The notes under the pieces were generated by a model. The model was not told where the DNA came from. It worked only from the letters and a program-made list of their open reading frames with translations, and made no database searches. Both the position numbers and the translations under genes were made by a program. From an uncultured Erysipelotrichaceae bacterium (GTDB taxonomy: Bacteria; Bacillota_I; Bacilli_A; RF39; UBA660): a DNA stretch of 57,175 bases. Shown piece by piece: positions 3,585-49,999 of this stretch (position 1 is its first letter; the number at the start of each line of letters is the position of its first letter). The stretch lies in contig CADBSF010000023.1 in NCBI GenBank assembly GCA_902797265.1, positions 1 to 57,175 on the forward strand, written 5' to 3'.

Positions 3585-4016
3585 TTATTGAAATAAATTT
3601 ATACTATCTATATCATTAGAATAGTCTAATATTTTTTTTGCATCTTGTTCATTAAATCCTTCTATTGTGAAGATATCATTATTTTCAGTAATGAAACGAA
3701 TGGTATATAGATTTTCTCTATTTGATGGAATCATATCTTTTGTTACCACTTTTGTTTTTTGTTGTATTAATGATACCATTGGTAATAAGAATTCCTTATA
3801 AAAATCATTATTCCAAGGATATTCCAAAGATTCAAACTCTTTTTTTTCTCCATTTAAGCCAATTAAATAAGATTGAATAGAAACAACAAGAGATTGAATG
3901 TTTAGATGAAAATGAATCGATACTTCTTTTGTAGATACTTGAAATAAATTAGCTATTTTTTGATATAAATCTTTATAATTCAACCGATTCACCTTCTTAT
4001 TTAACAACTGCTCCAC
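3585..4016 (-). CDS. hypothetical protein
   Basis: 143-aa ORF co-directional with its neighbours and overlapping the upstream gene by 20 nt. No motif recognised. Confidence 0.5.
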   Translation of the reverse strand: MEQLLNKKVNRLNYKDLYQKIANLFQVSTKEVSIHFHLNIQSLVVSIQSYLIGLNGEKKEFESLEYPWNNDFYKEFLLPMVSLIQQKTKVVTKDMIPSNRENLYTIRFITENNDIFTIEGFNEQDAKKILDYSNDIDSINLFQ

Positions 4017-29250: not shown

Positions 29251-29840
29251 ACTGGCATCACCGTCCCAAACTCTGTTGAAGTTCCTCCATTAAGGAAGTT
29301 CTCCATTAATAATCTTAAATCATCATTACTAACTAAAGATGCATTTAATCCACAAGAAGCTAATCCAGTAATCATTTGACGTACTCTTTTTTGTAATAAA
29401 TCAGTATCTTTTGATTTAAATAAGAAAAAGTATTCTGTATCAACTACATTATTTCTAATAAAAGCTTCTCCTTTATTAATGTCTTGTAATATCAACTTAC
29501 GAATAGCAGGAGATGATGTTTCATTAAGAAGTAATTGCATTTGAGACATATAAACAGAAATATCTACTGGTCTATCCGCAACGATTAACCAAAATTCATA
29601 ATCGATTGTATTATAAAAATTTCTTAAAGCTATTAAAACATTATTTTGATAATCAGGATCAAGAATAAAAATATTTCTAGGAGTAATTTTAACTCCTGTT
29701 ACTTTATTATTATCTCGAGTAACAATCATATTATTTTGAATAGATCGAATTGGTAACCAATCCTCTGTATATCCACTACTTTTTTTCGCCACTTCTACAA
29801 CACCATCCTTTCCATCTATAAGTTTGTCTATTAGTAACAA
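29247..29840 (-). CDS. VirB4-family ATPase, N-terminal part encoded as a separate ORF
   Basis: The block ...DWLPIRSIQNNMIVTRDNNKVTGVKITPRNIFILD resembles VirB4/PrgJ/TcpF N-termini. It ends in an ATGA overlap with the ATPase ORF. The track start is a TTG without an RBS; a GTG at 29792 is an alternative start. Confidence 0.6.
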   Translation of the reverse strand: MLLIDKLIDGKDGVVEVAKKSSGYTEDWLPIRSIQNNMIVTRDNNKVTGVKITPRNIFILDPDYQNNVLIALRNFYNTIDYEFWLIVADRPVDISVYMSQMQLLLNETSSPAIRKLILQDINKGEAFIRNNVVDTEYFFLFKSKDTDLLQKRVRQMITGLASCGLNASLVSNDDLRLLMENFLNGGTSTEFGTVMPV

Positions 29841-35214: not shown

Positions 35215-35370
35215 TTATTTTCCACTATAACTAGAAATATTATCCCATTGAGTATTAATAGAATTTTTAATACTTGGCCACATAATCCAGAAAAATCCGA
35301 TTATTGCTCCAATAGCGATTAAAGTAATTACGGTTAAGTTTAATTCACCCGTAGCAGCTTTCATCAACAT
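35215..35370 (-). CDS. 51-aa Flp/type-IV-like pilin candidate (not in the ORF track)
   Basis: Minus strand GAAAGGATGGG-ATG TTG ATG AAA...: MLMKAATGELNLTVITLIAIGAIIGFFWIMWPSIKNSINTQWDNISSYSGK*. It has an AAGGA RBS and its own promoter, and sits between the tadC-like and pseudopilin-like genes, the usual position of a pilin gene. Confidence 0.6.
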   Translation of the reverse strand: MLMKAATGELNLTVITLIAIGAIIGFFWIMWPSIKNSINTQWDNISSYSGK

Positions 35371-35451: not shown

Positions 35452-36255
35452 CTAAAACATCATCATCATAGATATTAATATGACTAACATGACACCAATA
35501 CCAGTAACAACAAGCATTACCATAGTTTGGCTTTCCATATGTCCTAGTCTCTCTTTATATTTTGTTTCCCTTGCTTTATTTTGTAAGGAAGAAACAGTTT
35601 TAGAAAACATCATCAATCTTTCCTGTTTTCTTTCTTGTGAACCAATTCCTAAACGATATAGTAAACGCATCATTCTCATAGAATCTCTAACAGGATATGT
35701 GTTAGCAAATTCCATGTAAGGATCAACTGATGCATCACCTGAATTGATTCGATCAATCATTCTTCTAAGTCCTGGTTTGAATATATCAGGAGCATCTCCA
35801 ATTGATTTACCAATTGCAACAGGAACTGTATAATGTTGAATTAATATTTCCAAACTCTTTAAATAGTATGGCAACATAACGTCAATTTCATGTAAATGTT
35901 GTTTATAATATCCTTTTAACTGTGTATAAGGAATCTTAAAGATAACAACAGCTACAACAATTGATAATACTAAATTCAAAAAGAATTGAGAATTAATAAT
36001 ATCAGCTGAACTATTTCCAGAAATAGTAAGTACTAATACAATTAAAAATCCCATAGCAGCATAAGTCACTCTTTTTGAATATAATTGATCAATATCAACA
36101 TCTTCCCCATATCTAGCATACACTAAAAATTGATAATCATCTTCTTTTAGTGCTTCTAAATATTTTTGATTATCTGCAAAAAACTTATCTTTATCGATTG
36201 TATTATTATAGATAAGGATAAACATGATAATTGCACCAACAATTAATATTTCCAT
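35452..36255 (-). CDS. TadC-like platform protein (T2SS-F family)
   Basis: 267 aa. Its topology of N-terminal TM helix, helical cytoplasmic domain and C-terminal TM helix, its size, and its position after the tadB-like gene are typical of TadB/TadC pairs. It overlaps the upstream gene by 1 nt. Confidence 0.55.
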   Translation of the reverse strand: MEILIVGAIIMFILIYNNTIDKDKFFADNQKYLEALKEDDYQFLVYARYGEDVDIDQLYSKRVTYAAMGFLIVLVLTISGNSSADIINSQFFLNLVLSIVVAVVIFKIPYTQLKGYYKQHLHEIDVMLPYYLKSLEILIQHYTVPVAIGKSIGDAPDIFKPGLRRMIDRINSGDASVDPYMEFANTYPVRDSMRMMRLLYRLGIGSQERKQERLMMFSKTVSSLQNKARETKYKERLGHMESQTMVMLVVTGIGVMLVILISMMMMF

Positions 36256-37157
36256 TATTCAGCCCCCACATTCTCATTATAGTATTTTTCACCCTTCAAT
36301 AAGAAGTATGTATTTACAACTAATACAGCATGCATCAAGAACTGTACATACCATCTTTGTAATAAAACCAAATAAGTTTCCCTTCCTAGTAAGTACTGTA
36401 CCAGCATAACTAACAAGTAAAGGATAACACCAAATTGTAAGAACGATTTATGGAAAGAAGCTCTTTCAATTCTATCACGATAAACACTTTCAACTAGCAT
36501 ATCGATATCTAGTTGCATGTTTTCCAAAGAATCGGCAGAGTTTTGAGCACCTTCCTTAGTTATTTGTAAAAATAATTGATGCATATTTTTAACAATATAG
36601 TAAGGATATAATCTACTCATATACTCTAAGGCTTCATCAATAGTACCATTATCATAACTCATATTAATCATCTGACGTACATCAGATAATACAGGATCTT
36701 CCAAGATTCCAGAATTTGCAACACCTTCTAGTGATTTTACAAAAGATTGTGTCGTAGCAAATTCCATAATAACATTGGAAGTATATACTTGTATTTGTTC
36801 AAATAAAAATTCTGAATAAACTCTCTTACATCTTAAATAAGAAAGGTAAGGTACAAAAGCAACAGCAATTAATGCATAAATAATACTAATAATTAAATTA
36901 TAGAAATATAGATACGTTACAACAGCTGCGAAAGTTGCAAAAATAGTAACTTGAATTGCATATTGTCTTGGAGTATATTCTTGCCCCATTTCTTTTGCTT
37001 TTTCTCTTACGATTTTAAAAGAATAAGGAGAAAATCTATCATACATTCCTTGTACTTGATTTACTACATATTTTCCTACATTATCACCTTTATAATGTCT
37101 ATATAGATAAATACCAAGTACAAATATCGTAATTATAAATAATTCTTCTAGATACAT
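36255..37157 (-). CDS. TadB-like platform protein (T2SS-F family)
   Basis: 300 aa with an N-terminal TM helix, a TM pair, a helical cytoplasmic domain (GTIDEALEYMSRLYPYYIVKNMHQLFLQITKEGAQ) and C-terminal TM helices. It lies immediately downstream of the ATPase gene. Confidence 0.55.
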   Translation of the reverse strand: MYLEELFIITIFVLGIYLYRHYKGDNVGKYVVNQVQGMYDRFSPYSFKIVREKAKEMGQEYTPRQYAIQVTIFATFAAVVTYLYFYNLIISIIYALIAVAFVPYLSYLRCKRVYSEFLFEQIQVYTSNVIMEFATTQSFVKSLEGVANSGILEDPVLSDVRQMINMSYDNGTIDEALEYMSRLYPYYIVKNMHQLFLQITKEGAQNSADSLENMQLDIDMLVESVYRDRIERASFHKSFLQFGVILYLLVMLVQYLLGRETYLVLLQRWYVQFLMHAVLVVNTYFLLKGEKYYNENVGAE

Positions 37158-37172: not shown

Positions 37173-38663
37173 CTACTCGCCTAACTTCATTGTAGCAGGA
37201 ATTCCAGTTGTATAATTTGCATTATTCATATCATTAGAAATATTTGGAGTTAAAGCTACTTGATTCGTAGGATATACAGGATTAGAAGGAAGATCTGGTA
37301 CAGGAGTAACAGGTTGATTATTTTCAACTGTACTACTAACTGCATTAACATCTGATACAGATGGAGTAAATCCATTTGTATTCTCTTCTCTTAGCATTTG
37401 ATTAACCATATTTGAAGTTGGATAAACACTCTCTTGAGAAGCAGTTTCTTCTGTTAAAACTTCACTTTGTACAGATTCAACTTGATTTGTATTATCTTCA
37501 CTAGTAACCACTTTATTAATAGTATTAGTCTCTTCTGTTGTTGTTATATTATCTTGACTAATCTCTTCGTAATTAGAATTATCTTTTCCACTACGAATTG
37601 GTAATTCATCAGGTAATCCACTAATAATATCAGAAACATTGATATTTTGATTTTCTATATATTCAATCAAATGATTACTTGGTTTACACATCATAGGTTT
37701 TCCAAACATTTTTTGATAAATAACACGAGAAATTGGAACATTATTATCATCAACATAAAATTCACATACTTCATCTAATTCACGATGGAATTTTCCATAT
37801 TCTTTTGAATAAAAAGCTTTAATATGAACTCCTAACTGGATATAACGATATATGGTAGTTAAGAATTGATGAACATCCAAATCTGTTTCCATTAAGGAAT
37901 ATAAACGATAAGGAATAGCAGATGCTTTATCCGCATGGATTGTTGATAAAATATTATGTCCAGAAGAAATCGAATTACGAACTGCAGAAACAGCTTCTGC
38001 AGAACGTACTTCTGATAGTAATATCCATTTAGGATTCTGTCTCATACAAGTTACTAATACGTCAGAATAACTAGCAACGTTATTTGTCTTCATTGAAACA
38101 ATATCTCTTTGTGGAAATATTTTATCCAAATGCAACTCTAGTGTATCTTCAATGGTTATGATTTTTTCATTAGTTTTGGTATGACTTGCTAAATACTTAA
38201 CAAACTCTGTTTTACCAGAACCAGTTTCTCCAGCAACCATTATGTTACAATGACCTTCAACGCATTTGATTAAAAAGTCATGAATGGTTGGTGTAAAATA
38301 ATCTTCTTGAATTAATTTATCTTTTTCAAGACGTATTTTAGCAGGAGTTTTACGAATAACTAGTGCAATTCCATTTGTTGCGATAGATTGATGAACAAAG
38401 TTCATACGTAACTCTGCAGATTCAGCATCCAAAAATGGTTTTGCATTATTAAATGTAGTACCCATAACATTAGAACACTGAAAAGCAAGTTTCTCAACGA
38501 ATTCAGGAGTAGCACCTTCTACTTCAACTCTTAAAGATCCTTGTGTAAGTGAACGAATCCAAATTTGTCCACCATTATCAAATGAAATATCTGTAATATC
38601 GTCGTTATCTAATAAAGAACGAAAAGGCCCAAAATCCAATTTATCAAAAATATTTTCGTTCAT
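37173..38663 (-). CDS. TadA/CpaF-type secretion ATPase (VirB11/T2SS-E superfamily) with low-complexity C-terminal tail
   Basis: Walker A MVAGETGSGKTEF, Walker B/Asp-box region WILLSEVRSAEA and His box STIHA. A ~140-aa S/T/N/V-rich tail (37173..~37601) lies beyond the ATPase core. Confidence 0.8.
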   Translation of the reverse strand: MNENIFDKLDFGPFRSLLDNDDITDISFDNGGQIWIRSLTQGSLRVEVEGATPEFVEKLAFQCSNVMGTTFNNAKPFLDAESAELRMNFVHQSIATNGIALVIRKTPAKIRLEKDKLIQEDYFTPTIHDFLIKCVEGHCNIMVAGETGSGKTEFVKYLASHTKTNEKIITIEDTLELHLDKIFPQRDIVSMKTNNVASYSDVLVTCMRQNPKWILLSEVRSAEAVSAVRNSISSGHNILSTIHADKASAIPYRLYSLMETDLDVHQFLTTIYRYIQLGVHIKAFYSKEYGKFHRELDEVCEFYVDDNNVPISRVIYQKMFGKPMMCKPSNHLIEYIENQNINVSDIISGLPDELPIRSGKDNSNYEEISQDNITTTEETNTINKVVTSEDNTNQVESVQSEVLTEETASQESVYPTSNMVNQMLREENTNGFTPSVSDVNAVSSTVENNQPVTPVPDLPSNPVYPTNQVALTPNISNDMNNANYTTGIPATMKLGE

Positions 38664-38701: not shown

Positions 38702-39508
38702 TTAACTTTCTGTCCAAACAGTATGTTGATTAATCCAATCTTTTAATTGTTCACTAGAAATCTCTTGATCAGCAGGTTCATCTTTTAAACTTTCATTAGT
38801 AGGAACTAATATTAAGTTTGTATCATAAGTTCTCATGAATTCTGCTTTTTTAAGAAGTACAAATGTTTCTTCAGGAACAGCAAACACTACCATAGCTGGA
38901 ACTCTTACTTCATCTAAGTTTTGGAATACAGGTTGTCCATTAGCATCTTTAACAGCTAATACTTCAATGTTAGAAATTAGTTTACCTAACATAATTTTGT
39001 CAGCATCAGCATCAAGTTTTTGATTATTATCAAGTTTATTAACTGCTTTTAAATAGATGTCAATATAGTTTCCTGGGTATACAGAGTTTCCATAAGTAGA
39101 AGCTGTACTAACGCTTAAGTTATATAGAACATATCCTTTTGGATAATCTAATATAATATTTGCTGGTAATTGTTCTTTTTCAACAACTGCTCTTTTATAG
39201 AATAAGCTTCCTTTTGGAATAACAGAATCAGCAGCAGAATATTTATCAACAATTTCCCCTATGTTTTGAATTACATCACCTTCAAGCATTGAAGGAGGTA
39301 CATTTCTTGTTGATATCATTGATTCTGTTATCTGAGTTCCTGGATTAATTTGTTCTGCAGCATAAGGTACAGAAACTGGATTAATTTGTGAGTTAATACG
39401 CATTGTGTAAGCAAAATATAATACTACAATTGCTGCGATAACCCCGACTACAGTAACTGTATTTTTATTTTGCATAAATTTTTTTAAACTAGTAGATAAA
39501 TTTCCCAT
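38702..39508 (-). CDS. CpaB/RcpC-like Flp pilus assembly protein (SAF domain)
   Basis: N-terminal TM helix, then a SAF-like block VSVPYAAEQINPGTQITESMISTRNVPPSMLEGDVI...ADSVIPKGSLF as in CpaB. 268 aa. Confidence 0.6.
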   Translation of the reverse strand: MGNLSTSLKKFMQNKNTVTVVGVIAAIVVLYFAYTMRINSQINPVSVPYAAEQINPGTQITESMISTRNVPPSMLEGDVIQNIGEIVDKYSAADSVIPKGSLFYKRAVVEKEQLPANIILDYPKGYVLYNLSVSTASTYGNSVYPGNYIDIYLKAVNKLDNNQKLDADADKIMLGKLISNIEVLAVKDANGQPVFQNLDEVRVPAMVVFAVPEETFVLLKKAEFMRTYDTNLILVPTNESLKDEPADQEISSEQLKDWINQHTVWTES

Positions 39509-39530: not shown

Positions 39531-40037
39531 TTAATTTTTATTTTGTAGCTCTATTAAAGACTTACATTGATCTAAAGTCATATTCTTTAAACCTTCCTCA
39601 ACTGGAAAATCACTATAAACATTAGATTCAACAATCATATCATAACTAGTTGAAATATTTCCTGAATCTTTAGATTCTTTTCCATCTTTATCCTTTACTT
39701 TTACAGAAAGAACAGTTTGAGAATCTACTTTAATACTTGCTTTTGGTGGAACTTCATTAATATCATAGAACTTAATATTATAATCTCTTGTTCCATCTAC
39801 ACTATTAGCAAATCGATAAACGAAGCTTTCAACAAATTTTTCTTTATCGATTCTAAGTAGACCACAGGTTCTTAAATATGTATTATCAATGGCATCAAGA
39901 GCAGCGGCATCCGCTGTCTCTTTTACCAAATAATAATCTAATTCTCCTCCAGTTGAATAATTAGTAAGTACATTAATCATTAGAAGAGCAATAACACTTA
40001 ACAAAATTATTCCTACTGCCAACATTCCTTTATTCAT
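39531..40037 (-). CDS. N-anchored ~170-aa protein with prepilin-like short leader (module copy B)
   Basis: Starts MNKG followed by MLAVGIILLSVIALLMINVL, then the conserved STGGELDYYLVKETADAAALDAID. By eye ~70-75% identical to 45773..46285. Confidence 0.55.
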   Translation of the reverse strand: MNKGMLAVGIILLSVIALLMINVLTNYSTGGELDYYLVKETADAAALDAIDNTYLRTCGLLRIDKEKFVESFVYRFANSVDGTRDYNIKFYDINEVPPKASIKVDSQTVLSVKVKDKDGKESKDSGNISTSYDMIVESNVYSDFPVEEGLKNMTLDQCKSLIELQNKN

Positions 40038-40055: not shown

Positions 40056-42794
40056 TTAATATTCTTCACATTGTGTAGCTCGATAGTTTCTAATGTTATT
40101 ACAATGTAATACACTAGGACTTGGTGCTGTTACATCTTTTAACTTATCTTTACCTCTTAATAATGGTGATTCATATACACCAATATTTTGAATTGTAAGT
40201 TCTCCATCAAATGTACCAAATTGTTTATTTTGTGTTCTTAGTTTTTTAATTTCTTCACGAGTAAGTGTTATCTCATAGTCTAGATATTCATTACTATAAA
40301 TACTATATCCTTTTTCCTCTACAAATGTTTTATAAGCAGATGGATTTGAAGTATATTCAGGGTCCTTCAATGTATTTGTAGCATAACTACTCCAGTTAAA
40401 TGGAACTGCTTCACTCTTAGAAGAGCCATCTTTACTTGGGAATAAATTCTCAAGACTTACAGAACGAACTTTATACTCTTTCTTTTTATCAGAATCATCA
40501 GAAATACTGATACATTTTTTATCACAATTTTCAACTTTATCAAGACCACCAAGAGCATAGAAACATGAAATATCAATATCCCATTCAAATAATCCGAATT
40601 TTCTTGTAGTTGCTTTGATGTTATATTTAACATTCTTTACATCTTCCTCAGTAAATGTTCCATAAGTAGTAGCATAATTACATGTATTAGTACAGTTCTT
40701 ACCATCTTCAATATAACTTGTAGTTTCTGAATTAGCAGCATAAGATGGATCATTTCCATGCATCTTAGCATAATAGTATAACCACCATTTTTCATTTACA
40801 TAAGGGAAATCATATGGTATACAGAATTTTTTATCTGTCTTAGTCCATGCTTTTCCAGTAATTTCTTTGAATGATATTTCACCAGTCTTAGCATTATGCC
40901 ATGTACCTGGGAAACTCCATTCAGATAAATACCATCTTTGATCAATACTTGTAGATGTAGTTCCTTCTGTTCCACTTGTAGTAGTTCCACTGAATGAAGA
41001 ACTTCCTACTGGGTTGTAGCAACCATCAGCATCTAATAATGTACTATCTTTTGTACTCTTAGTATTAACTCCTGAGTATGCCATTTCATCTTTACTTCTT
41101 GAGTAAGGGAAGTTAATCCATGTTTCTTCACTCTTACCTTTTTCTAAGTAAGATACTGAAATAGTAAATTCAGCAGTTGATGTATTACATTTAGCATAAG
41201 CTTCACATTGAGATTTTAATTTTAAGTAAGTTTTTGCATTTTCTTCTGCATCAACTTTATAGTCTTCTAAGTTAAGGTAAACATCACCTGTTCCACCTTT
41301 CCAAGAACATTTATCACTACATATATTTCTTATTGGAATACCATTTTCTATTTTTGTATAATCTTTTTTAGGAGGAATTCCCCATTTATGACCTTGATGC
41401 CATCTAGATAAGCCATCACCTGTCCAATAAATTTTACCTTTTTTACAAACATATTTTCCTTCACTATTAGGAACTTTAGTTGTATTCTTATTAGCAACTT
41501 TAGAAACCGTATAATCATCTGTACTATTTAATTTTTCAGCATAAGATAATTCTAAAGTAGATGTTTTAGTAGTTGTTTCACCATATACTTCTTGATAACA
41601 CTTATCACTACATTTATCAGAATACTTACCACCATCACATTCAGCAATACAACTATCGAAATCTTCACTTGGACCACCTTGTCTCATTGTTTCTGAACCA
41701 TGGTGTACACAAACTGGTGTAGGTGTTTCTAATATAGCGTCTTTTGGTTTTGGAACACCTGAATCACTAGAACAATTTACACGGCTAGTAACTTTAACTT
41801 TGTATTCAAAACATAAACCAGCTTTAGAAGCAACAGGAGCTCCATATTCTACTTCAACAACCTCTTCACATTTTATTTTACAAGAAACTGTTTCTGATTT
41901 AGCTTGACATCCATAATTATATACATATTTTCCTTCAATAGATGCAAGAGTTCCTTCACCATATAAATAATTTGTATTTACATAGTATTCACTATCATTT
42001 TCAGGAACACCAGTAACTAATTTATAAGGATCACATTTAAAAGAAGCAGTAGACACTCCTAATTTTGAAAATGTATTTCTTTCAGCAGTAAACGTATATG
42101 CTTTTTTACTACTTTCTGGTGCATTATTATATCTATTTTTCATATCACAGAACTTATATTCAAAAGATTCTGCAGCAAATTTTGATTGATAAGAATTACA
42201 ATCAATTCCAGGTGTACCAACACTGTCAGGTAAATTAGCAGCAGTAAGCACTTCTTGTGATGGTTTATAAAAATTACTTATAGAAATCCAAACCAACATG
42301 GAAGAACCTGCTCCACAATTTTTTGTTAATTGTGGATCCGTAAATAATGGTTGTAAAATTACCTTAATTGACTCATATTCTTCTGAAAAAGTATTAAAAA
42401 TTATTTCATTTTTCGAACTTAATGTTAAATTGGAATTACGTATTTTAGAAGCAAAATCAGGAATATCAACTTCAACTAAATCCACATCTCTAATGCCATG
42501 AACAGCCACTACTTTAAATTTTACTTCATCCTTTATTTTTCCATTCGTCTTAAAAGCATTAGCAATCATATTACTATTTAATTGCATTCTAATATAATCT
42601 GGGTTTAAATCCTTATTATAAGCAAAAGAAATACCATATCTTGATTGAAAGTCTGTAGTACTAAAACTAGTACATTTATCACTTCCATCACCGGCTACTT
42701 CTGCATTTCTATCATCTGCAAAAACATTGACATATGAAAAAGCTAAAAATAAAATTAAAACCCCTATTATTCTTTTATAATGAATCTTCTTCAT
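40056..42794 (-). CDS. large secreted cysteine-rich protein, unknown family (module copy B)
   Basis: AAGGGAG RBS lies 9 nt before the ATG at 42794. Signal peptide MKKIHYKRIIGVLILFLAFSYVNVFA; ~29 Cys by manual count; no C-terminal sorting signal. Paralog of 46303..49200. Confidence 0.65.
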   Translation of the reverse strand: MKKIHYKRIIGVLILFLAFSYVNVFADDRNAEVAGDGSDKCTSFSTTDFQSRYGISFAYNKDLNPDYIRMQLNSNMIANAFKTNGKIKDEVKFKVVAVHGIRDVDLVEVDIPDFASKIRNSNLTLSSKNEIIFNTFSEEYESIKVILQPLFTDPQLTKNCGAGSSMLVWISISNFYKPSQEVLTAANLPDSVGTPGIDCNSYQSKFAAESFEYKFCDMKNRYNNAPESSKKAYTFTAERNTFSKLGVSTASFKCDPYKLVTGVPENDSEYYVNTNYLYGEGTLASIEGKYVYNYGCQAKSETVSCKIKCEEVVEVEYGAPVASKAGLCFEYKVKVTSRVNCSSDSGVPKPKDAILETPTPVCVHHGSETMRQGGPSEDFDSCIAECDGGKYSDKCSDKCYQEVYGETTTKTSTLELSYAEKLNSTDDYTVSKVANKNTTKVPNSEGKYVCKKGKIYWTGDGLSRWHQGHKWGIPPKKDYTKIENGIPIRNICSDKCSWKGGTGDVYLNLEDYKVDAEENAKTYLKLKSQCEAYAKCNTSTAEFTISVSYLEKGKSEETWINFPYSRSKDEMAYSGVNTKSTKDSTLLDADGCYNPVGSSSFSGTTTSGTEGTTSTSIDQRWYLSEWSFPGTWHNAKTGEISFKEITGKAWTKTDKKFCIPYDFPYVNEKWWLYYYAKMHGNDPSYAANSETTSYIEDGKNCTNTCNYATTYGTFTEEDVKNVKYNIKATTRKFGLFEWDIDISCFYALGGLDKVENCDKKCISISDDSDKKKEYKVRSVSLENLFPSKDGSSKSEAVPFNWSSYATNTLKDPEYTSNPSAYKTFVEEKGYSIYSNEYLDYEITLTREEIKKLRTQNKQFGTFDGELTIQNIGVYESPLLRGKDKLKDVTAPSPSVLHCNNIRNYRATQCEEY

Positions 42795-43614
42795 TATTGT
42801 CATCTCCCTTCAATTTTTTTTCAATTTTTGAATATTTTTTTGTAGTAGTAACTTTATAATCTGTTATTTCTTCATTATCTCTTAATAATCTACCATTTAC
42901 AATAACTTGATAATAAGGACTAGTTCCAAAAAATCTAGTACATGTATAAATAGATATTAAAGAATCTTTTTCATTAACGTCGACATCATATTGATATAGA
43001 CTTTCCTTTCGAAGCAAACTAATTTGCTCTTTCATTTCTTCTTCATCATAATCATCGCCAGCTGGAAAAGAGGTAACATCAGCATTTTTTATAAAATCAA
43101 CTGCAAAGATTTTATACACATAATCTTTTCCATCAATTGTAAATTGAATATATTTGTTTTCCTTTGCAAAATCATAATAAACATAAGCCATTAATTCTTC
43201 CAATCTTTTAAATTTTTCAGAATGAATCTTAGGAGTAGAAGATAAATTGAAAATATTATGACCCATTAAATTTATCATATTATGAAAATTAGGATCAAAA
43301 TTTTCTGACCAAACATAGCTTTCTAATTCTACTGGAAAATCAAAAGAACGATTAGTACTATAAAGAACAGGATAATCAATATTAGTGCCTTCCATTCTCA
43401 GCCATCCTATTACTCTATAAGATGAATCACTGGTAATAACAGTTTCTTCAATATTTTTCGTTCGTGATTCAACAGTAAACAATTCTTTGGTTTTCTTCGA
43501 CTGCTTATTAATACTTCCAAGCGAAGAAACAATTCCAATTATCATAATGAATAAAAGAAATACACCTATTAGAGAATAAAAATATTTACTTTTTTTATTC
43601 TTTCTTTTCATCAT
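42775..43614 (-). CDS. class B sortase-like cysteine transpeptidase (module copy B)
   Basis: N-terminal TM helix plus blocks that align with S. aureus SrtB: VIGWLRMEGTNIDYPVLY, MGHNI (His) and LISIYTCT (TLxTC-type Cys). An Arg lies in NGRLL. AAGGAG RBS precedes the ATG at 43614. Confidence 0.65.
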   Translation of the reverse strand: MMKRKNKKSKYFYSLIGVFLLFIMIIGIVSSLGSINKQSKKTKELFTVESRTKNIEETVITSDSSYRVIGWLRMEGTNIDYPVLYSTNRSFDFPVELESYVWSENFDPNFHNMINLMGHNIFNLSSTPKIHSEKFKRLEELMAYVYYDFAKENKYIQFTIDGKDYVYKIFAVDFIKNADVTSFPAGDDYDEEEMKEQISLLRKESLYQYDVDVNEKDSLISIYTCTRFFGTSPYYQVIVNGRLLRDNEEITDYKVTTTKKYSKIEKKLKGDDNNEEDSL

Positions 43615-43637
43615 CAAAACTCCTTTATAATCATGTT

Positions 43638-45425
43638 CTATTTAATTTTATAGGGTTCTTGAATTGTTCCTTTGCCAGAAACAATAGTTGCATTTTCTTT
43701 GATATAGCCAACAACACGAATTCCTAATTCAAATCCACTTCCAATCTTTTCATTGATAGGAACTCCGATGTTATACACAGCTGCTATTCTCTTACTATTC
43801 TTACTAGAATTTAGATACCAATAAGAACCGTTTTGTTTAGATTGTGCAGAAAATAAATCATACATATTTGGAGCAGATAATATAGCATTATACTCTTTTG
43901 TCTCAACTTCCTTTCCGTATAAAAATCTATCTTTATAAATCGGTACTTGAATTTTATGATTGACAAAATAGTGTGTATCAATAGACTCGCTTACTTTATT
44001 ATTAATAAAATAACCAACATTATTTTTTTCTTTAACATTATAAATGTAATTACTTCTATTCGTATCAACAATATAAGTTATTTCTTCAGAAGAATTTGTA
44101 ACAACATCTGTATTGATAACTTTTGTTGTTCCATCTTTTAATGATTCAATAATTCTAAATAAATCTCCTCCAATATCTATGTATTCACCAGAATACCTAT
44201 CATGAACATAATCACCTGGTTTTGCTTTCTTATTATCAGATAATACATAAGGATTGTCTTCTGAACCATCACCATCAATAATTAATGAATTTTTCATCAA
44301 AGTTAACATTGGTCTTACTCCATAAGTTTCATCTACGCTATAAGGTATATAAGAATAATTTGCATATTCATTAACAAATGCATCTCTTGTTACATAAGCA
44401 TTCTTAGAATCTTTTTTATCAGCTACCCAAGACATCGTTCTAGTTTTCATAAAATTGCTATCTGTAGAAGCTGCTTCATTTACTTCAACAACAGAAGGAA
44501 TATAAACTTTTCGTTTCTTTGTGTAAGAACTACAATCTGTAGTACCTACAGCATTTTCATCTAAAGTCATATCACAATACTTGCTATCGACAACTAATTT
44601 CTTACTCTCATCTGTTAAGTGATCATAGAAATATTTTAGCCAAGAATCTAATCCTGAATAATTCACATTACTAATATCTTCATCCGCAACTATTTTGATA
44701 TTATCATTTTCATCAATTCCATAGATACGGAAAAGCATATTTGAAAAAGTAACATAATTATTATAAGGATTACCTGAATAATTTTTTTCAGTAGATAAAT
44801 CTTTCTTTACAGTACTATACAAATCTTGAACAACATTAACCGTTCTAGTAGAAACTCCTTTGTTACTCAAACCATCAAACGCTGAATAAGTAAGAGTGTA
44901 AGTTCCTGTCACTTGAGTATTTACTTCTCCTTTAACAGTAACATCGGATTTATCCATTTTGCCATCTTTGTTGTCAACAACACTGTTAACTCCTGGATCC
45001 ATAAATGATTCTCCTAAGCTAAGAGTAATTTCCTTTTCTCCATTCAATTTGATTACAGGTCCTGTATGATCAACCATTGATTTTAATAATCCACATTCTA
45101 AATAAACATAATATTTGTATTCTCCATTTACTCTTTTTACTTTAACCCAACTATTATCAAGTGAGCATGTAGTTTTAGTATAAGGAATTAACACATCTTC
45201 CTCAATAAAAGATTTGTGATATAAAGTCTTCAAAGTAACTGCCTTAACTCTCTCACCAGTAGGCAATTCACTAGTATATAGTTCAAAATATCTTTCTGCT
45301 GCTTTTCTTAGTTTATTTTCATTTTCTCTAAAAATAATAGTAGGCCATATGATTAAAAACCAAATAAATACAACGACAAGAAATATTGTTACTAATAACT
45401 TCCAACTATTCTTTTTATTCTTCAT
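43638..45425 (-). CDS. N-anchored surface protein: Ig-like (DUF5011-type) domain + two 'GVRP / GxG(T/S)xExPY' modules (module copy B)
   Basis: TM helix LLVTIFLVVVFIWFLIIW. Ig-like block GPVIKLNGEKEITLSLGESFMDPGVNSVVDNKDGKMD...VTGTYTLTYSAFDGLSN...RTVNVV. Module motifs YGVRPMLTL...GDGSEDNPYVL and GIRVVGYI...GKGTIQEPYKIK. Confidence 0.6.
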   Translation of the reverse strand: MKNKKNSWKLLVTIFLVVVFIWFLIIWPTIIFRENENKLRKAAERYFELYTSELPTGERVKAVTLKTLYHKSFIEEDVLIPYTKTTCSLDNSWVKVKRVNGEYKYYVYLECGLLKSMVDHTGPVIKLNGEKEITLSLGESFMDPGVNSVVDNKDGKMDKSDVTVKGEVNTQVTGTYTLTYSAFDGLSNKGVSTRTVNVVQDLYSTVKKDLSTEKNYSGNPYNNYVTFSNMLFRIYGIDENDNIKIVADEDISNVNYSGLDSWLKYFYDHLTDESKKLVVDSKYCDMTLDENAVGTTDCSSYTKKRKVYIPSVVEVNEAASTDSNFMKTRTMSWVADKKDSKNAYVTRDAFVNEYANYSYIPYSVDETYGVRPMLTLMKNSLIIDGDGSEDNPYVLSDNKKAKPGDYVHDRYSGEYIDIGGDLFRIIESLKDGTTKVINTDVVTNSSEEITYIVDTNRSNYIYNVKEKNNVGYFINNKVSESIDTHYFVNHKIQVPIYKDRFLYGKEVETKEYNAILSAPNMYDLFSAQSKQNGSYWYLNSSKNSKRIAAVYNIGVPINEKIGSGFELGIRVVGYIKENATIVSGKGTIQEPYKIK

Positions 45426-45772: not shown

Positions 45773-46285
45773 TCAATTTCTAAGTTCTTGTAGAGCTTTA
45801 CATCTATCAGATGTTTGATTATGTAAACCCTCTTCTACTGGAAAATCATTATATACAGTAGTTTCTACTACTAAATCATAATTAGTACTGATTTTAGCAG
45901 ATTGATTATCTCCATAATCATTATTACCGTTTCCTTTTCCTCCAGAATTAACAGCAAGTACCGTATTTGAGTCTACTTTAATACTAACTCTTGGAGGAAC
46001 TTCATTAATATCATAAAAACTAATATCATAATCTCTTGTAGCATCTACACTATTCGCAAAACGATAAACAAAACTCTCTATAAATTTTTCTTTATCCATT
46101 CGAAGTAATCCACAATCTCTTAGATAAGCTTGATCAATAGCTTCTAAAGCAGCGGCATCTGCTGTTTCTTTTACTAAATAATAATCTAGTTCTCCACCTG
46201 TTGAGAAATTGGTAAGAACATTAAGCATTAGAAGAGCAACAATACCCAACAAAATGATTCCTACCGTTAACATTGCTTTATTCAT
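45773..46285 (-). CDS. N-anchored ~170-aa protein with prepilin-like short leader (module copy A)
   Basis: Starts MNKA followed by MLTVGIILLGIVALLMLNVL, then STGGELDYYLVKETADAAALEAID. GGAGGAG RBS. Paralog of 39531..40037. Confidence 0.55.
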   Translation of the reverse strand: MNKAMLTVGIILLGIVALLMLNVLTNFSTGGELDYYLVKETADAAALEAIDQAYLRDCGLLRMDKEKFIESFVYRFANSVDATRDYDISFYDINEVPPRVSIKVDSNTVLAVNSGGKGNGNNDYGDNQSAKISTNYDLVVETTVYNDFPVEEGLHNQTSDRCKALQELRN

Positions 46286-46302: not shown

Positions 46303-49200
46303 TTAAAATTTCTCACATTCACCGCTACTACGGTTTTTAATATTATTACATTTTAATGCTGCAGAACTTGGATAAATTGATCCGTTATTAGCTAAAATAC
46401 CACCTGTTGCAAATAAGGAACTTCGATAAATATTAACATGATCATTATCTATGATGTTACCATTATATTGACCAATAGAATTACCACTATTTCGAATTTG
46501 ACGAATTGTATTTCGATCAAGTTTGATTTTATAATCCAAGTATTTGTCAGAATAAATATTATAATTGTTCTCCTCTACCCATTTTCTATAAGCAACAGCA
46601 TTTGATATATAACTACTATCCTTCGTACTAGTAGAAAAACTACTCCAGTTAAATGGTACAGGGCTATGAATCTCGTCTGATTTACTAGTTCCTTCCTTAT
46701 CAGGGAACATATTATTTAAGTCTACAGAACGAACTTTATATGTTGGAATATCAGGAATTGTACATTTTTCTTCCTCTATTGAACAAGATGGTAATTTACT
46801 ATAAAGAGAATAGAAACAAGAGATATCTACATTCCAACCAAAATGTCCAAAGTTTCTACTAGTAGCTTTAATATTGTATTTAAGTTCACTTACATCCGTA
46901 GAAGAGAATTCTTCAACTTTATAATTATTACATTTATCACAACTAGAACTATTAACTTTATTGGTAGAATTAGCTGCATAGTTAGAATCATTACCATATA
47001 ACTTCGTATAGTAATATAACCACCATTTTTGATTTACATCCTGAGCATCTCTTGGAACATAGAATTTATGTTTTCTAAATCCCCATGCCTTTCCCGTACT
47101 ATTTGGATTACTATAAGCAAGTTCACCAGTTTTTCCATTTATCCAAGTACCAGGGAATCCCCATTCAGCATGGTACCAATTCGTATCATTATCTACGTTG
47201 TAGCAACCAGCACAACTAATAATAGAGGTATCTTTCCAATTATCAGCTGTAGTAGTACTTCCATTTGCTGGATTATCACATTTTTGTGGATTTTTAAATT
47301 TCAAAACATCAGAAGTTCTAGTATATGGGAAATTAACTGTAAATTCTTGATTAGATTTAGAAGCTAGATAATTAGTGCTAATATTAAAGTAAGCTTCTTC
47401 TGTTTTACAAGTATTAGAATTTCCACATAATCCAAGTGCTCTAACATACGTTTCGTAATTAGCTTTCATATCATTTGCGGTGTCAATAGGATTTATATAA
47501 ATTTTAGAGTCATCCATTGTTTCTCCAGTACATCCATCCCAATGACAGGCAACAGTACAGTCACACTCTGAAGCAATACCAGCCGCTTTTCCAGTATTCT
47601 TAACACATTTTAACTCAGAACGAACATTTCCTTTCATTACATAATATCTTCCAAGTCCAGGACAATACTGGTTTCCAAAATTCCAAACAACATAAACACC
47701 ACTGGCATCTGTATAACGACTATAAGATCCAACCCCATCTGTACTTGCAGGACACCATTTTGTAATTCTACATTTGGTTCCCGCTTTAGAAGTAACTTTA
47801 TTATCACAAGATTCTTTATTATTCTTAACTTTTTCTAAATAATCATCATAAAAACTATTGGCAAGTGATTTAGAAATTTCACTCTTTGTTCCATATACTT
47901 CATTATAACAAGATAAAGAACACTTTTGAGTATACTTTCCACCATCACAATTTTTGATACATTGATCAAATTCTTCATTAGGACCTGCAGTCTCAATCTC
48001 AGCACCCTTAGAATGAACACAAATTGGCGCAGGAGTACAAACTGTTTTATACCTTACTTCAATCTCAGGCTCTTTAATTGGACTAGTAGAATAACAATTA
48101 ACTCTACTGGTCATTTTAACTTTATACTCGAAGCCAAATCCAGCTTTAATTCCAACTGGAGGACCATATTCAACAGTAACAGTCTCAACACATGTTTTAT
48201 TGCATTGTAAGGTAACTGTCTCAGCAGCCGGCCCACCATTATTATGATAATGAAAAGTATAAACTAAAGGTACCCCATTATCATAAATTGGTCCCGTTGT
48301 AGATGATGTCCCTACCATATAACTTTTATTAACATAATAATCAGAAACATCATCTGGTTTTGAAAAATTATAAGGATCACATTTAAATGTCTTTAAATCC
48401 ATCGTTTGTCCTTCAGTTAAATTATACCTATTTTCTGCTGGAGTAGCATTATAAGCATTACAAAATTCATATTCAAAAGAACCAGGTGTATGAGATACTC
48501 CACAATTTATTTGACTAGATTGATTCTTTTTCTTAATTTCTTCTGCTTGTGCTTTTAGAGAATTAATTGCTCCTTTAATTCCTTCCGTTTCAGTATCCCA
48601 TGTAGTAGTCCAAAAATTTCCATCATCTACAAGAGGTTCAAAAGATTCTGCACCAAGAAATACACGTTCATTTGGATTACTTGCACTTCTTAATACAATA
48701 TTATAAGTCGCAATGTCATAACCTCTATTAAACATTATAAATACTTCATCATTTTCAATAGGATCATTATTACTCTTTTTCCTAACTCTATCAGCTGCTA
48801 ACATTTTAATCCAATGTTCTTTTGAAGCATCATTACTAGCCTGAATAATACATCTATCCTGATAATAATTATTATTTTGTGTCCTACAAAGCCAACGATT
48901 GACATCTATTCCTTCGAATTCATAAGCTAGTTTTGCTGAAGTATCCGTTGATTTAGAAACAACTACAACTAATCTTTCAACCACTACCCTTTTCTTAGTA
49001 GTAATTTTAATCCCCATATTTCTTGGAATTGGTTCAGCTTTCGCTTCTAAAGCAGGGACTATGGTATTTTTTAATTCCTCAACATACCCAGGATCAACCC
49101 GTCTCGTATAAGCATTTACAGAAAAAGGAATCATTAGAAAGAAAAGAAAAATTACTATAACCCCTATCTTTTTTAAATTAAATGTTTTCATCATTTTCAT
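46303..49200 (-). CDS. large secreted cysteine-rich protein, unknown family (module copy A)
   Basis: Signal peptide ...IGVIVIFLFFLMIPFSVNA (start may be the ATG at 49194). Shares blocks with 40056..42794: FKCDPY, VEYG.PV..KAG..FEYKVK.TSRVNC, CDGGKY..KCS..CY.EVYG, FPGTW.N.KTGE, KWWLYYY, YNIKAT.R.FG.F.W..DISCFY, YKVRSV.L.N.FP.K.G.SKS, PFNWSS. Confidence 0.65.
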   Translation of the reverse strand: MKMMKTFNLKKIGVIVIFLFFLMIPFSVNAYTRRVDPGYVEELKNTIVPALEAKAEPIPRNMGIKITTKKRVVVERLVVVVSKSTDTSAKLAYEFEGIDVNRWLCRTQNNNYYQDRCIIQASNDASKEHWIKMLAADRVRKKSNNDPIENDEVFIMFNRGYDIATYNIVLRSASNPNERVFLGAESFEPLVDDGNFWTTTWDTETEGIKGAINSLKAQAEEIKKKNQSSQINCGVSHTPGSFEYEFCNAYNATPAENRYNLTEGQTMDLKTFKCDPYNFSKPDDVSDYYVNKSYMVGTSSTTGPIYDNGVPLVYTFHYHNNGGPAAETVTLQCNKTCVETVTVEYGPPVGIKAGFGFEYKVKMTSRVNCYSTSPIKEPEIEVRYKTVCTPAPICVHSKGAEIETAGPNEEFDQCIKNCDGGKYTQKCSLSCYNEVYGTKSEISKSLANSFYDDYLEKVKNNKESCDNKVTSKAGTKCRITKWCPASTDGVGSYSRYTDASGVYVVWNFGNQYCPGLGRYYVMKGNVRSELKCVKNTGKAAGIASECDCTVACHWDGCTGETMDDSKIYINPIDTANDMKANYETYVRALGLCGNSNTCKTEEAYFNISTNYLASKSNQEFTVNFPYTRTSDVLKFKNPQKCDNPANGSTTTADNWKDTSIISCAGCYNVDNDTNWYHAEWGFPGTWINGKTGELAYSNPNSTGKAWGFRKHKFYVPRDAQDVNQKWWLYYYTKLYGNDSNYAANSTNKVNSSSCDKCNNYKVEEFSSTDVSELKYNIKATSRNFGHFGWNVDISCFYSLYSKLPSCSIEEEKCTIPDIPTYKVRSVDLNNMFPDKEGTSKSDEIHSPVPFNWSSFSTSTKDSSYISNAVAYRKWVEENNYNIYSDKYLDYKIKLDRNTIRQIRNSGNSIGQYNGNIIDNDHVNIYRSSLFATGGILANNGSIYPSSAALKCNNIKNRSSGECEKF

Positions 49201-49999
49201 TATCTCCTTTCAAAATAGATAATATTTTATCATAATTACTATTCATAGATACACTATAGCGACTATTTTTTTCCCCTTTTCTAAGTAACCTACCTGTAAC
49301 ATAGAAACTATAATTATCCTCTGCTCCAAAGAAACGTGTACAGGTAAATAAGGTTACATACTTATCCTTTTCATTATAGGAAGTTCTATAATCAAATATA
49401 GAATTCTTCTTCCAAAAGATTATATTCTTTTTTATCTCTTTTTTTGATAGATTACCTTTTCCAACAAAATCATGATATTGATCTTTTTCCATAAAACCAA
49501 CAGATATAATTTTATATAGGTAATCATGATCATTAAATGTTATTTGAATGTATTCATTCTCTTTAGCAAAATCATAATACACAAAACTCATCAACTCTTC
49601 AAATCGATAAAACAGGACAGATCTTAATAATGGTTCACTAGATAAATTAAATATATTATGTCCAGAAATATTAAACTGATTATAGAGTTTAGCTTTCTCA
49701 TGCAAAATCCACACATAATTTTCTTCTGTTGCTGGATAACCATAGTTAGTAATATCTTTTGAAAAAACAATGGGAATATCAAGACTAGTTCCTTGAACTC
49801 TAAGCCAACCAACAGTATCTAAGGAAAGAGTTGAATCAACTTTAACAGAATGAACCTTCTCCACTCTACTAAGAACTTCATAATAATCTTTCCTTTTACT
49901 AAAAAATGGGCTTACAGCAAACAAGAATATTAAAATACAAACTATAACAATATAGAAAAACTTCAAGTCAATTCTTTTTAATAACAACCTAAACCACAC
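49178..49999 (-). CDS. class B sortase-like cysteine transpeptidase (module copy A)
   Basis: TM helix, then TVGWLRVQGTSLDIPIVF, SGHNI, VTLFTCT and TGRLL. The start codon is uncertain (GTG at 49999 or TTG at 49987). Confidence 0.6.
   Translation of the reverse strand: MWFRLLLKRIDLKFFYIVIVCILIFLFAVSPFFSKRKDYYEVLSRVEKVHSVKVDSTLSLDTVGWLRVQGTSLDIPIVFSKDITNYGYPATEENYVWILHEKAKLYNQFNISGHNIFNLSSEPLLRSVLFYRFEELMSFVYYDFAKENEYIQITFNDHDYLYKIISVGFMEKDQYHDFVGKGNLSKKEIKKNIIFWKKNSIFDYRTSYNEKDKYVTLFTCTRFFGAEDNYSFYVTGRLLRKGEKNSRYSVSMNSNYDKILSILKGDNENDENI

Follow-up and report, generated by a model that had tools for sequence, protein, structure and literature searches.

Little is understood of how the type IV secretion systems (T4SSs) of monoderm bacteria recognise their target cells and keep hold of them, and few adhesins are known. 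The question is raised by a chromosomal locus of an uncultured Erysipelotrichaceae bacterium (assembly GCA_902797265.1, contig CADBSF010000023.1, positions 1 to 57,175; this whole stretch of 57,175 nucleotides is called the window below), in which two genes for large, cysteine-rich secreted proteins, here named CYS915 and CYS965, lie among the genes of a conjugation-type machine. A first, sequence-only reading of this DNA had described the pair as secreted paralogs of ~915 and ~965 residues with ~30 cysteines, and had offered pilus-tip adhesins, secreted effectors or substrates of the adjacent machinery as candidate functions. Both are probably disulfide-stapled, Sec-exported and non-anchored adhesins for target recognition that fill the adhesin slot of a monoderm T4SS operon of the pLS20/pXO1 type, one with a Tad-like sub-module. 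From the evidence set out below we infer surface exposure, disulfide chemistry, docking through a conserved motif and adhesin function, and together these features fit a strongly divergent, disulfide-rich variant of the anchor-less adhesins of monoderm T4SSs.

Two secreted paralogs of an undescribed family

The earlier estimate of length and cysteine number was borne out on counting, with 29 cysteines among the 915 residues of CYS915 (3.17%) and 35 among the 965 of CYS965 (3.63%). The 43 other minus-strand open reading frames (ORFs) of the window have a pooled cysteine content of 1.10%, and against this background the excess corresponds to binomial p values of 7e-7 and 2e-9, respectively. CYS915 and CYS965 are 36% identical across residues 213-915 of the former (E 1e-133), whereas their first ~210 residues are not alignable, and all the cysteine clusters and aromatic blocks listed in the sequence-only reading are present in both (FKCDPY, RVNC, PxCVH, CDGGKYxxKCSxxCYxEVYG, DISCFY, KWWLYYY, PFNWSS and CNNI[RK]N...C). 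That reading had also stated that extracellular proteins of anaerobic or monoderm Firmicutes are usually cysteine-poor, which agrees with the work of Daniels et al., where it was shown for aerobic Firmicutes (PMC2823432); the CYS family is a clear exception to this exclusion.

Both proteins begin with an n-h-c signal peptide, with predicted cleavage between VFA and DD in CYS915 and between VNA and YT in CYS965. A hydrophobic stretch occurs only near residue ~12, and the maximal hydrophobicity value (KD19) beyond residue 40 is below 1.0. Neither protein has a membrane anchor or C-terminal transmembrane (TM) segment, and a sorting signal of the LPXTG or NPQTN kind, in which a pentapeptide near the C-terminus precedes a hydrophobic stretch and a basic tail, is absent from both and from every other ORF of the locus, in keeping with the earlier description of Sec-exported proteins without TM or LPXTG-type C-termini. 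An alternative ATG at codon 4 of CYS915 (position 42794) is the start used in a 912-residue database entry (P0001), a 99% identical copy located on a rumen metagenome contig.

Homology searches and structure prediction, the checks proposed at the outset, recovered no known adhesin or enzyme family, and the view that the proteins belong to no recognisable family holds. Neither protein has a match in Pfam, NCBIfam or PHROGs, and a profile of 46 relatives found nothing among PDB sequences. The AlphaFold2 model of CYS915 built on the same 46 relatives has a well-predicted core at residues 200-370, and Foldseek returned no match for it in PDB or BFVD at E <= 1e-3, only weak Fn3/Ig-like pieces. Relatives are nevertheless numerous. 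A word-index search yielded 295 clusters, all unnamed and free of Pfam domains except for two, relatives with extra Listeria-Bacteroides surface repeats (PF09479), and an exhaustive profile search of 1.84 billion proteins gave 668 representatives, each standing for a cluster at 50% identity, at E <= 1e-3 and 464 at E <= 1e-30. Among the best 150 of these 668 matches nearly all are full-length relatives, mostly of ~850-1140 residues, so a wider superfamily is not supported. The family is thus real and closed; it is also undescribed, having no Pfam entry even in newer precomputed annotation and no functional description in the literature on DUF5411, PF18895, pXO1-55 and RF39 T4SSs.

The species-representative genome set contains 133 relatives, and 78 loci were kept for comparison, all from metagenome-assembled genomes (MAGs) of uncultured gut and rumen organisms, nearly all labelled Bacilli (labels include Bacilli, Erysipelotrichaceae, Mollicutes/Tenericutes, Mycoplasma sp. 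CAG:877 and Candidatus Faecimonas). The family was not found in PLSDB, INPHARED or IMG/VR. A pCP13-like or other plasmid origin was set aside because megablast and tblastn of CYS915 against PLSDB were empty and housekeeping genes flank the locus on both sides, and a phage tail or receptor-binding protein because IMG/VR, INPHARED, PHROGs and BFVD were all without a match.

The adhesin slot and the C-terminal module

The window is chromosomal, and the CYS genes belong to a single co-directional locus (20536-53386, minus strand) between housekeeping flanks, which consist of a U32 peptidase, an HD phosphohydrolase and GreA on the transcriptionally upstream, high-coordinate side and of DedA, RmuC, a class-I tRNA synthetase, a rhomboid protein, HtpG, phosphoketolase and a class-V aminotransferase on the other. 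In the direction of transcription the locus opens with g525 and two modules, each composed of Big, sortase-like, CYS and DUF5411 genes, followed by a CpaB/RcpC-like protein, a VirB11/TadA-type ATPase and two TM proteins; next come a 51-residue ORF, two cysteine-rich pilin-like proteins, g349, a T4SS_pilin-like protein, g194, TrbL/VirB6 and a small VirB3-like protein, and then VirB4 in two ORFs, a SpoIID-domain hydrolase, g279, a CD1115-family VirD4 and a DUF6273 protein. No relaxase or integrase was found among window ORFs of at least 100 residues. The locus looks like a domesticated conjugation-type machine.

The order greA-g525-Big-Srt-CYS-DUF5411-CpaB-ATPase-TM-TM-pilin-like-g349-pilin-g194-VirB6 recurs in nearly every long-enough locus of the 78, the HD/GreA flank accompanies it in 55-60 of them, and the genes are coupled through overlaps or short gaps. 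With so fixed an order at the same chromosomal site, the locus is therefore vertically inherited and not a roaming element. Within this stable framework the proteins differ greatly in evolutionary rate, the median identity of orthologs to the window proteins being 90% for GreA, 86% for the ATPase, 79-80% for the two TM proteins, 72% for CpaB, 61% for DUF5411, 48% for Big, 41% for the sortase-like protein and 33% for CYS, the fastest-evolving gene of the locus. Most of the variation in CYS falls within residues 30-270 and four loops; the mean frequency of the majority residue is 0.23-0.40 in residues 30-270 as compared to 0.5-0.7 in the core, and residues 271-420 and 781-810 are strongly conserved. 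The module has also been duplicated independently several times, recently in two loci (L064 and L034) and earlier in two others (L003 and L010).

A counterpart to this arrangement is found on conjugative plasmids. Relatives of the window VirB4, at ~30% identity, occur on 2690 Firmicute plasmids, and the closest plasmid relatives of the VirB11/TadA-type ATPase are those of the pLS20 family. On pBMB67 and pE81-53 of the Bacillus cereus group, an S-layer-homology (SLH) protein is followed by a ~850-residue 'conjugal transfer protein' of the pXO1-55 family, DUF5411, SAF/CpaB, an AAA ATPase, a type II secretion system/type IV pilus (T2SS/T4P) ATPase, two TM proteins and DUF4320, with the relaxase, VirD4, TrbL and VirB4 of pBMB67 lying upstream. 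In the pLS20 family the series runs from TIE (gene 34) through p120, a DUF5411-like protein, the ATPase, two TM proteins, a DUF4320-like protein and small ORFs to T4SS_pilin, VirD4 (CD1115), VirB6, a VirB3-like protein and VirB4. Listeria pLIS29, E. faecium p3 and a Lysinibacillus plasmid have a matching order through the ATPase and two TM genes within the regions fetched, two of them with a further small gene, and their first slot holds a protein with a thioester domain (TED) or of SpaA-like or Ig-like type. Each plasmid slot protein is followed by a small gene encoding a hydrophobic N-terminus, which is DUF5411-like on pBMB67, on pE81-53 and in the pLS20 family; these DUF5411-like genes were detected through Pfam only, tblastn of DUF5411 against the plasmids giving no match.

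CYS915 and CYS965 stand in the corresponding place, directly upstream of DUF5411 and the VirB11/TadA-type ATPase in a locus with VirB6, VirB4 and a CD1115-type VirD4. Comparison with the plasmids, which fill this position with TED, SpaA-like, Ig-like and pXO1-55-like proteins, shows it to be a slot in which one large secreted surface protein can stand in for another, and CYS occupies it. For one occupant the function is known: when gene 34 is deleted, pLS20 conjugates ~1000-fold less in liquid and ~15-fold less on solid medium, and the TIE protein has a signal peptide, lacks a sorting signal and functions without sortases, its retention on the cell being assigned by the authors to the C-terminal ~250 residues through a mechanism that they call open (PMC8092201). 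The adhesin part of the earlier proposal accordingly finds support in the invariant synteny, the highest rate combined with a hypervariable N-terminus, the shared slot with TIE and a weak similarity in the C-terminal module.

The same observations bear on whether CYS is instead a structural scaffold, a wall-spanning or channel part of the T4SS/Tad machine comparable to VirB8/9/10 or PrgC-type wall subunits. Strict co-inheritance with the machine in the 78 loci speaks for such a role, as do the conserved core and C-terminal module and a heavily cross-linked fold that would suit a mechanical element, but recurrent duplication, the hypervariable N-terminal third and the status of fastest-evolving gene are atypical of core channel parts, and plasmids use interchangeable adhesin architectures (TED, SpaA-like, Ig-like) at this position, all of which makes a scaffold unlikely. 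The other half of the earlier proposal, a secreted effector, toxin or substrate moved by the adjacent T4SS, would account for a large, secreted and polymorphic protein beside a secretion system, but it has very little probability left. A role of CYS as T4SS substrate is not supported: the protein carries a Sec signal peptide, whereas the coupling protein of monoderm T4SSs draws its substrates from the cytoplasm; moreover, its variable part is N-terminal and not a C-terminal toxin tip, no toxin domain was found, and the downstream gene encodes the conserved machine component DUF5411, not an immunity protein.

The plasmid slot proteins have a C-terminal module in common. A tblastn search with the last 200 residues of TIE matched 361 plasmids, the matched proteins including pXO2-28-30 fusions, Listeria TED proteins, an Enterococcus SpaA-like protein and pXO1-55-like proteins (27% identity, E 5e-5), and the common module of ~200 residues comprises five blocks (GYGF..Y.N; FPx..VE+xTG..F; DGGxKxYxPxW; GVNK; D-phi-phi-x-x-phi-N-x-x-N-P-F-P-x-G...W). 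Collinear counterparts in CYS are WSFPGTW-NxKTGE-ISY, KFCIP, YNIKAT..FG and Y[RK][IV]RSVDLxNLFPxxDG...FNW, the DGGxKxY block not being clearly present. Aligned with hhalign, residues 600-835 of CYS match the plasmid module weakly (E 0.0016 over 142 collinear columns, probability 16%); a reversed template gave E 0.78, 20 column shuffles gave 0.06-0.84, and other CYS regions gave 0.28 and 0.67. Homology of the CYS module to the plasmid adhesin module is suggestive, not established.

Two elements of the module deserve mention. The Y[RK][IV]RSVDLxNLFP...FNW motif, searched as a regular expression among the 1546 ORFs of the loci, is confined to CYS proteins; its region has a predicted local distance difference test (pLDDT) score of 41-45 and yet is among the most conserved stretches of the protein, a combination expected of a partner-binding segment. 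Upstream of it, residues 637-642 ([NH]-x-K-[TS]-G-E) include a lysine, K639, that is present in 297 of 299 family members. This NxKTGE sequence was considered as an internal class-B sortase signal and rejected, as it aligns with the VE+xTG block of plasmid adhesins that use no sortase; its role in the shared module is probably structural or functional.

Probable cysteine pairing and a proposed model of attachment

The cysteine enrichment is not a product of chance, because among the 299 non-identical family members on which the cysteine statistics are based, 27 cysteine columns are kept at 80-100% despite an overall identity of ~33%. Where conserved cysteines are lost, they are lost reciprocally: positions 308 and 533 in 6 of 6 cases, 331 and 661 in 5 of 5, 359 and 504 in 7 of 8 (both are missing from CYS915), and 202 and 219 in 36 of 41. 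Variable cysteines are likewise gained in pairs, with phi values of 0.98 (484/493), 0.87 (901/912), 0.83 (580ins/605) and 0.66 (708/764). Four further cysteines, C385/C389 and C398/C402, are carried by two successive predicted helices (residues 380-390 and 396-407 in the model) and form a twin-CX3C hairpin.

The total is as regular as the pairs. Mature proteins of the family contain 23-45 cysteines, and the number is odd in 248 of 299 members (83%), independently of any cysteine in the signal peptide. Exported neighbours have an even bias, DUF5411 proteins having 0 or 2 cysteines in 68 of 72 cases and pilin-like proteins 4 or 6 in 64 of 83, and an even bias in exported proteins is regarded as the signature of a disulfide-forming system (PMC2823432). 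Pairwise gain and loss together with odd parity therefore suggest ~13 intramolecular disulfides and one conserved unpaired cysteine in CYS. There is only a hint as to which residue this might be, C704 being lost more often in even-parity members (16 of 51) than in the others (25 of 248), which makes it a weak candidate. A cysteine of DUF5411 as its partner is not supported, given the 0 or 2 cysteines of that protein.

Conserved cysteines might coordinate metal instead of forming disulfides, with zinc or iron bound, for example, by a Cys4 site at the twin CX3C, an arrangement that would keep the protein stable in a reducing gut. Twin-CX3C segments can bind zinc when reduced, as in the small Tim proteins, and the MAGs of the family come from anoxic rumen and gut habitats. 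Metal binding nonetheless appears rather improbable, for gain and loss occur strictly between two positions and not four, parity is kept across totals of 23-45 cysteines, conserved His, Asp or Glu ligands are almost absent near the cysteines, and a candidate extracytoplasmic oxidoreductase with a CPHC thioredoxin fold is encoded in the window.

In the last-named protein (5986-7209, minus strand, 407 residues) a signal peptide precedes a thioredoxin/glutaredoxin-like domain that carries CPHC, and several membrane helices come next. CPHC is the classical active site of DsbA-type enzymes, and further cysteines occur in the membrane part (FNPCAMW and ELACSAGLP). This candidate thiol-disulfide oxidoreductase could serve the cysteine-rich exported proteins of the locus.

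The unpaired cysteine invites a different thought, namely that CYS is an extracellular enzyme or reactive-thiol protein whose free thiol acts as a catalytic or covalent-capture nucleophile against the target envelope, in the manner of thioester adhesins. In addition to the odd parity in 83% of members, the near-invariant K639 and several invariant Asn, Glu and Tyr residues are consistent with this, and the slot protein of pLS20 does use a reactive cysteine in its thioester domain (PMC8092201). However, TED, peptidase and hydrolase matches are all absent, there is no invariant histidine, and C704 is a weak candidate for the residue in question, so that such chemistry seems quite improbable. The Cys-Gln linkage typical of TED was rejected specifically, as there is no TED match and the sole near-invariant glutamine column is occupied by glutamate in both CYS915 and CYS965.

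For an adhesin with paired cysteines the following mechanism may be envisaged. After export, ~13 disulfides would staple the beta-rich scaffold of CYS, with one further conserved cysteine left unpaired; the proposed pairs include the long-range C308-C533, C331-C661 and C359-C504 and the local C202-C219 and C901-C912, in addition to the twin-CX3C hairpin. The conserved core and the C-terminal module (residues ~625-810, including Y[RK][IV]RSVDLxNLFP...FNW) would hold the protein on the machine. Its likeliest docking partner would be the DUF5411 protein encoded 12-20 nt downstream, since DUF5411 alone is found after the slot protein in every case, even among very distant systems. Contact with the surface of the target cell would be made by the hypervariable ~240 residues at the N-terminus together with several variable loops, and would stabilise the cell-cell junction that a T4SS requires; the two complete modules of this genome might provide two target specificities.

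Several observations weigh against this reading. Disulfides are chemically awkward in the strongly reducing rumen and gut, where the twin CX3C could bind metal instead, and because no relaxase was found in the window, 'mating' in the sense of conjugation may not apply. A tightly coupled, catalytically intact sortase-like enzyme is encoded beside CYS, whereas TIE needs no sortase. The model of CYS915 is of medium quality (mean pLDDT 72, predicted template modelling score 0.57), and every known member of the family comes from an uncultured organism. The weak hhalign match of the module belongs here as well, since CYS and the plasmid module are not significantly similar by HMMER, and a full-length profile comparison aligned only 27 columns.

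A wider synthesis is possible but doubtful. According to it, the machine is a domesticated T4SS/Tad system of pLS20-like type without a relaxase, inherited vertically beside greA across a whole clade of uncultured Bacilli of the gut and rumen with small genomes, and it has a role beyond plasmid spread. CYS would be its fast-evolving target-recognition part, would carry 2n+1 cysteines, as ~13 structural disulfides and a reactive thiol despite a strongly reducing habitat, and would dock on DUF5411 through its C-terminal motif. Were the machine domesticated in this way, its possible roles would include attachment to partner cells and the uptake or exchange of DNA or nutrients. Were the docking on DUF5411 correct, it would be the long-sought mode by which anchor-less adhesins such as TIEpLS20 are retained on monoderm T4SSs.

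Regardless of these extensions, the occupants of the adhesin slot now include, with the CYS proteins, a new family that is large (668 clusters at 50% identity) and of unusual, apparently disulfide-rich design. The observation that unrelated slot proteins appear to share a C-terminal module and motif beside a DUF5411 gene makes the question of attachment directly testable.

Gene content of the locus and its known relatives

The features of CYS915 and CYS965 and the other genes of the locus are collected in Table 1.

Table 1. Features of the CYS locus in order of decreasing coordinate, with the basis of each assignment
Feature	Coordinates	Strand	Basis or remark
g525, N-terminally anchored 525-aa protein, first locus gene after greA	51809..53386	minus	syntenic in ~70 loci; no family found
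Big610, paralog of Big595, second module	50002..51834	minus	ORF and Pfam
Sortase-like protein, 273 aa, second module	49178..49999	minus	Pfam, conserved residues, overlap
CYS965, paralog of CYS915, 965 aa, 35 Cys	46303..49200	minus	alignment to CYS915
DUF5411 protein, 170 aa, downstream of CYS965	45773..46285	minus	Pfam DUF5411 E 1e-39
Big595, N-terminally anchored Ig-like and DUF6273 surface protein	43638..45425	minus	Pfam Bact_surface_Ig-like E 3e-17, DUF6273 E 6e-8; syntenic in 73/78 loci
Sortase-like protein, 280 aa, translationally coupled to CYS915	42775..43617	minus	Pfam Sortase E 6e-9; weak SrtB match
CYS915, 915-aa secreted protein, 29 Cys	40056..42803	minus	ORF and Cys count
CYS915 signal peptide, aa 1-29, MTIMKKIHYKR-IIGVLILFLAFSYV-NVFA/DD	42717..42803	minus	read from sequence; sole hydrophobic segment
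CYS915 hypervariable N-terminal region, aa 30-270, proposed target-binding part	41994..42716	minus	low majority-residue frequency; paralogs unalignable there
CYS915 conserved beta-rich core, aa 271-420, with twin-CX3C helical hairpin C385/C389...C398/C402	41544..41993	minus	pLDDT mostly 80-96; invariant Cys columns
CYS915 C-terminal module, aa ~625-810 (WSFPGTW-NxKTGE, KFCIP, YNIKAT, Y[RK][IV]RSVDLxNLFPxxDG...PFNWS)	40374..40931	minus	hhalign against plasmid adhesin module
CYS915 most conserved linear motif, aa 776-806, proposed docking interface	40386..40478	minus	conservation 0.69 against pLDDT 41-45
DUF5411 protein, 168 aa, next gene after CYS915; putative docking partner or pilin-like adaptor	39531..40037	minus	Pfam DUF5411 E 4e-41
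CpaB/RcpC-like protein (SAF and RcpC)	38702..39508	minus	Pfam; NCBIfam pilus_cpaB E 6e-12
VirB11/TadA-family secretion ATPase	37173..38663	minus	Pfam T2SSE E 1e-27; NCBIfam VirB11 and 'TadA family conjugal transfer-associated ATPase'
Two polytopic membrane proteins, 300 and 267 aa, TadB/C position	35452..37157	minus	position and 79-80% identity; no Pfam match
51-aa ORF, candidate major pilin (MLMKAATGELNLTVITLIAIGAIIGFFW... / MLMKAATGELNLTVITLIAIGAIIGFFWIMWPSIK...)	35215..35370	minus	below 60-aa ORF listing; between TadB/C-position and pilin-like genes
Cys-rich (~4%) pilin-like protein, 155 aa	34734..35201	minus	conserved MxDxxGG and hydrophobic N-terminus
Cys-rich (~4%) pilin-like protein, 151 aa	34259..34714	minus	conserved MxDxxGG and hydrophobic N-terminus
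VirB2-type T4SS pilin candidate, 113 aa	32782..33123	minus	weak Pfam T4SS_pilin, E 1.4e-3; pLS20 counterpart 1.3e-7
TrbL/VirB6-like channel protein, 712 aa	30108..32246	minus	Pfam TrbL_4 E 1.5e-7
VirB4-like ATPase, two ORFs (29247-29840 and 27460-29250; 4-nt overlap)	27460..29840	minus	Pfam TraG P-loop and AAA_10; NCBIfam Mbov_0397, CD1110 VirB4
SpoIID-domain cell-wall hydrolase candidate, VirB1 role	24988..27438	minus	Pfam SpoIID E 1e-7
VirD4-type coupling protein, CD1115 family	21789..24146	minus	Pfam T4SS-DNA_transf E 1e-54; NCBIfam conju_CD1115 299.5 bits (cutoff 250)

The sortase-like proteins have conserved His, Cys (TCTR) and Arg residues and are catalytically intact, and in 76 loci the end of their gene and the beginning of CYS share a median of 26 nt; a canonical sorting signal that would mark a substrate was not found in any protein of the locus. 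The gap between CYS and DUF5411 is similarly short, with a median of 12 nt across loci. In its predicted structure (pLDDT 66), DUF5411 consists of helices at residues 3-49 and 65-79 and three long strands forming a sheet, a layout like that of pilins; Foldseek returned no pilin among the matches to this model, which leaves DUF5411 a possible, not a proven, pilin.

Among the Tad-like genes, the ATPase has a low-complexity tail of ~150 residues (~350-496) rich in N, T, S, Q, P and V, and plasmid homologues align to residues ~11-350 only. The pLS20 counterpart of the proteins in the TadB/C position has a weak T2SSF match. The 51-residue ORF is matched in 63 of 78 loci, with ~70-90% identity among the best matches listed, and has no Pfam match. 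Orthologs of the two pilin-like proteins mostly have 4 or 6 cysteines and share an invariant C-terminal F-Q-[VI]-[ST]-G-[DN]-T-[KR]; they belong to no Pfam family, and their position matches that of DUF4320/TadE-like genes on plasmids. The FQV[ST]GDT sequence was rejected as a sortase donor, as it is not T-specific and resembles a terminal strand. The 596-residue part of VirB4 corresponds to positions 295-891 of the VirB4 model from Mycoplasma integrative and conjugative elements (the Mbov_0397 family), and the two-ORF structure may reflect true splitting of the gene or, alternatively, an N-terminal domain with a gene of its own. Outside the locus, an ORF at 3997-5625 (minus strand) encodes an extremely acidic, repetitive, E/K/S-rich protein of 542 residues with repeated DIDLPFGEPSEEEKKE units, without a Pfam match or signal peptide.

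Proteins that lend specificity to secretion machines or pili are known from several systems. In TraN, the mating-pair stabilisation protein of F-like plasmids, variable surface parts determine recipient specificity. TraN is likewise a cysteine-rich, Sec-exported T4SS accessory, the disulfides of which are thought to be formed with the aid of thioredoxin-like partners (PMC7555446). Unlike CYS, it is an outer-membrane protein of diderms and thus a functional analogue only, and no Pfam or NCBIfam match at E <= 0.1 places CYS in the TraN family. PilY1/PilC of type IV pili and the PilV protein of the R64 thin pilus are large or variable non-core proteins that are encoded with minor pilins and confer binding specificity on the pilus. 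When mating in liquid, the IncI1 plasmid R64 uses a type IV pilus in combination with its T4SS (PMC4027160). A PilY1 beta-propeller and a pilin or VirB5 helical fold were not recovered in CYS by Pfam, nor by Foldseek against PDB at E <= 1e-3.

With respect to the machine as a whole, a parallel is offered by the Patescibacteria, uncultured hosts with small genomes that have a chromosomal monoderm-type T4SS with VirB2-like T4SS_pilin genes; co-option of this system has been suggested because it mostly lacks a relaxase (PMC12102498). The report does not mention a CYS-like protein, DUF5411 or CpaB, and the phylum is a different one, but a conjugation-derived, chromosomally fixed machine from which the relaxase is mostly absent is common to both. 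A machine of conjugation type fixed in the chromosomes of abundant uncultured Bacilli of the gut and rumen thus parallels the co-opted T4SS of the Patescibacteria.

Among slot proteins, the pXO1-55-like 'conjugal transfer proteins' (PF27438; pBMB67 and pE81-53) resemble CYS in being secreted, in their length of ~780-850 residues and in their position upstream of DUF5411, SAF/CpaB, the AAA ATPase and the T2SS/T4P ATPase, and they share the motif DDFIRRSVNPSNPFPDKVGWNW and an FP...VEKxSG block with CYS. They have 9-10 cysteines, moderately many but far fewer than CYS, there is no significant full-length similarity, and their gene is preceded by that of the SLH protein whereas CYS is preceded by Big and the sortase-like gene.

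A second close counterpart is TIEpLS20, the thioester-domain adhesin encoded by gene 34 of the Bacillus subtilis plasmid pLS20 (PMC8092201). The differences from CYS are considerable. TIE has a single cysteine, a TED and CnaB-type domains, whereas the CYS proteins have 29-35 cysteines and no TED or Cna match; in a Pfam scan neither CYS915 nor CYS965 contained a TED (PF08341, PF20610), while the pLS20-family protein matches TED_2 and TED. Outside the C-terminal region there is no detectable similarity, and CYS has an extra C-terminal domain of ~110 residues and an adjacent sortase-like gene. TIE is plasmid-borne and accompanied by a relaxase, whereas CYS is chromosomal with none in view within the window. 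Yet the two agree in slot position, operon layout, signal peptide and the lack of both LPXTG and a C-terminal TM segment, and the C-terminal motif of TIE, ...TPINADDPFPNG...NW, resembles that of CYS, ...RSVSLENLFPSKDG...FNW. A shared module of ~200 residues may be what keeps anchor-less conjugation adhesins such as TIEpLS20 on the cell.

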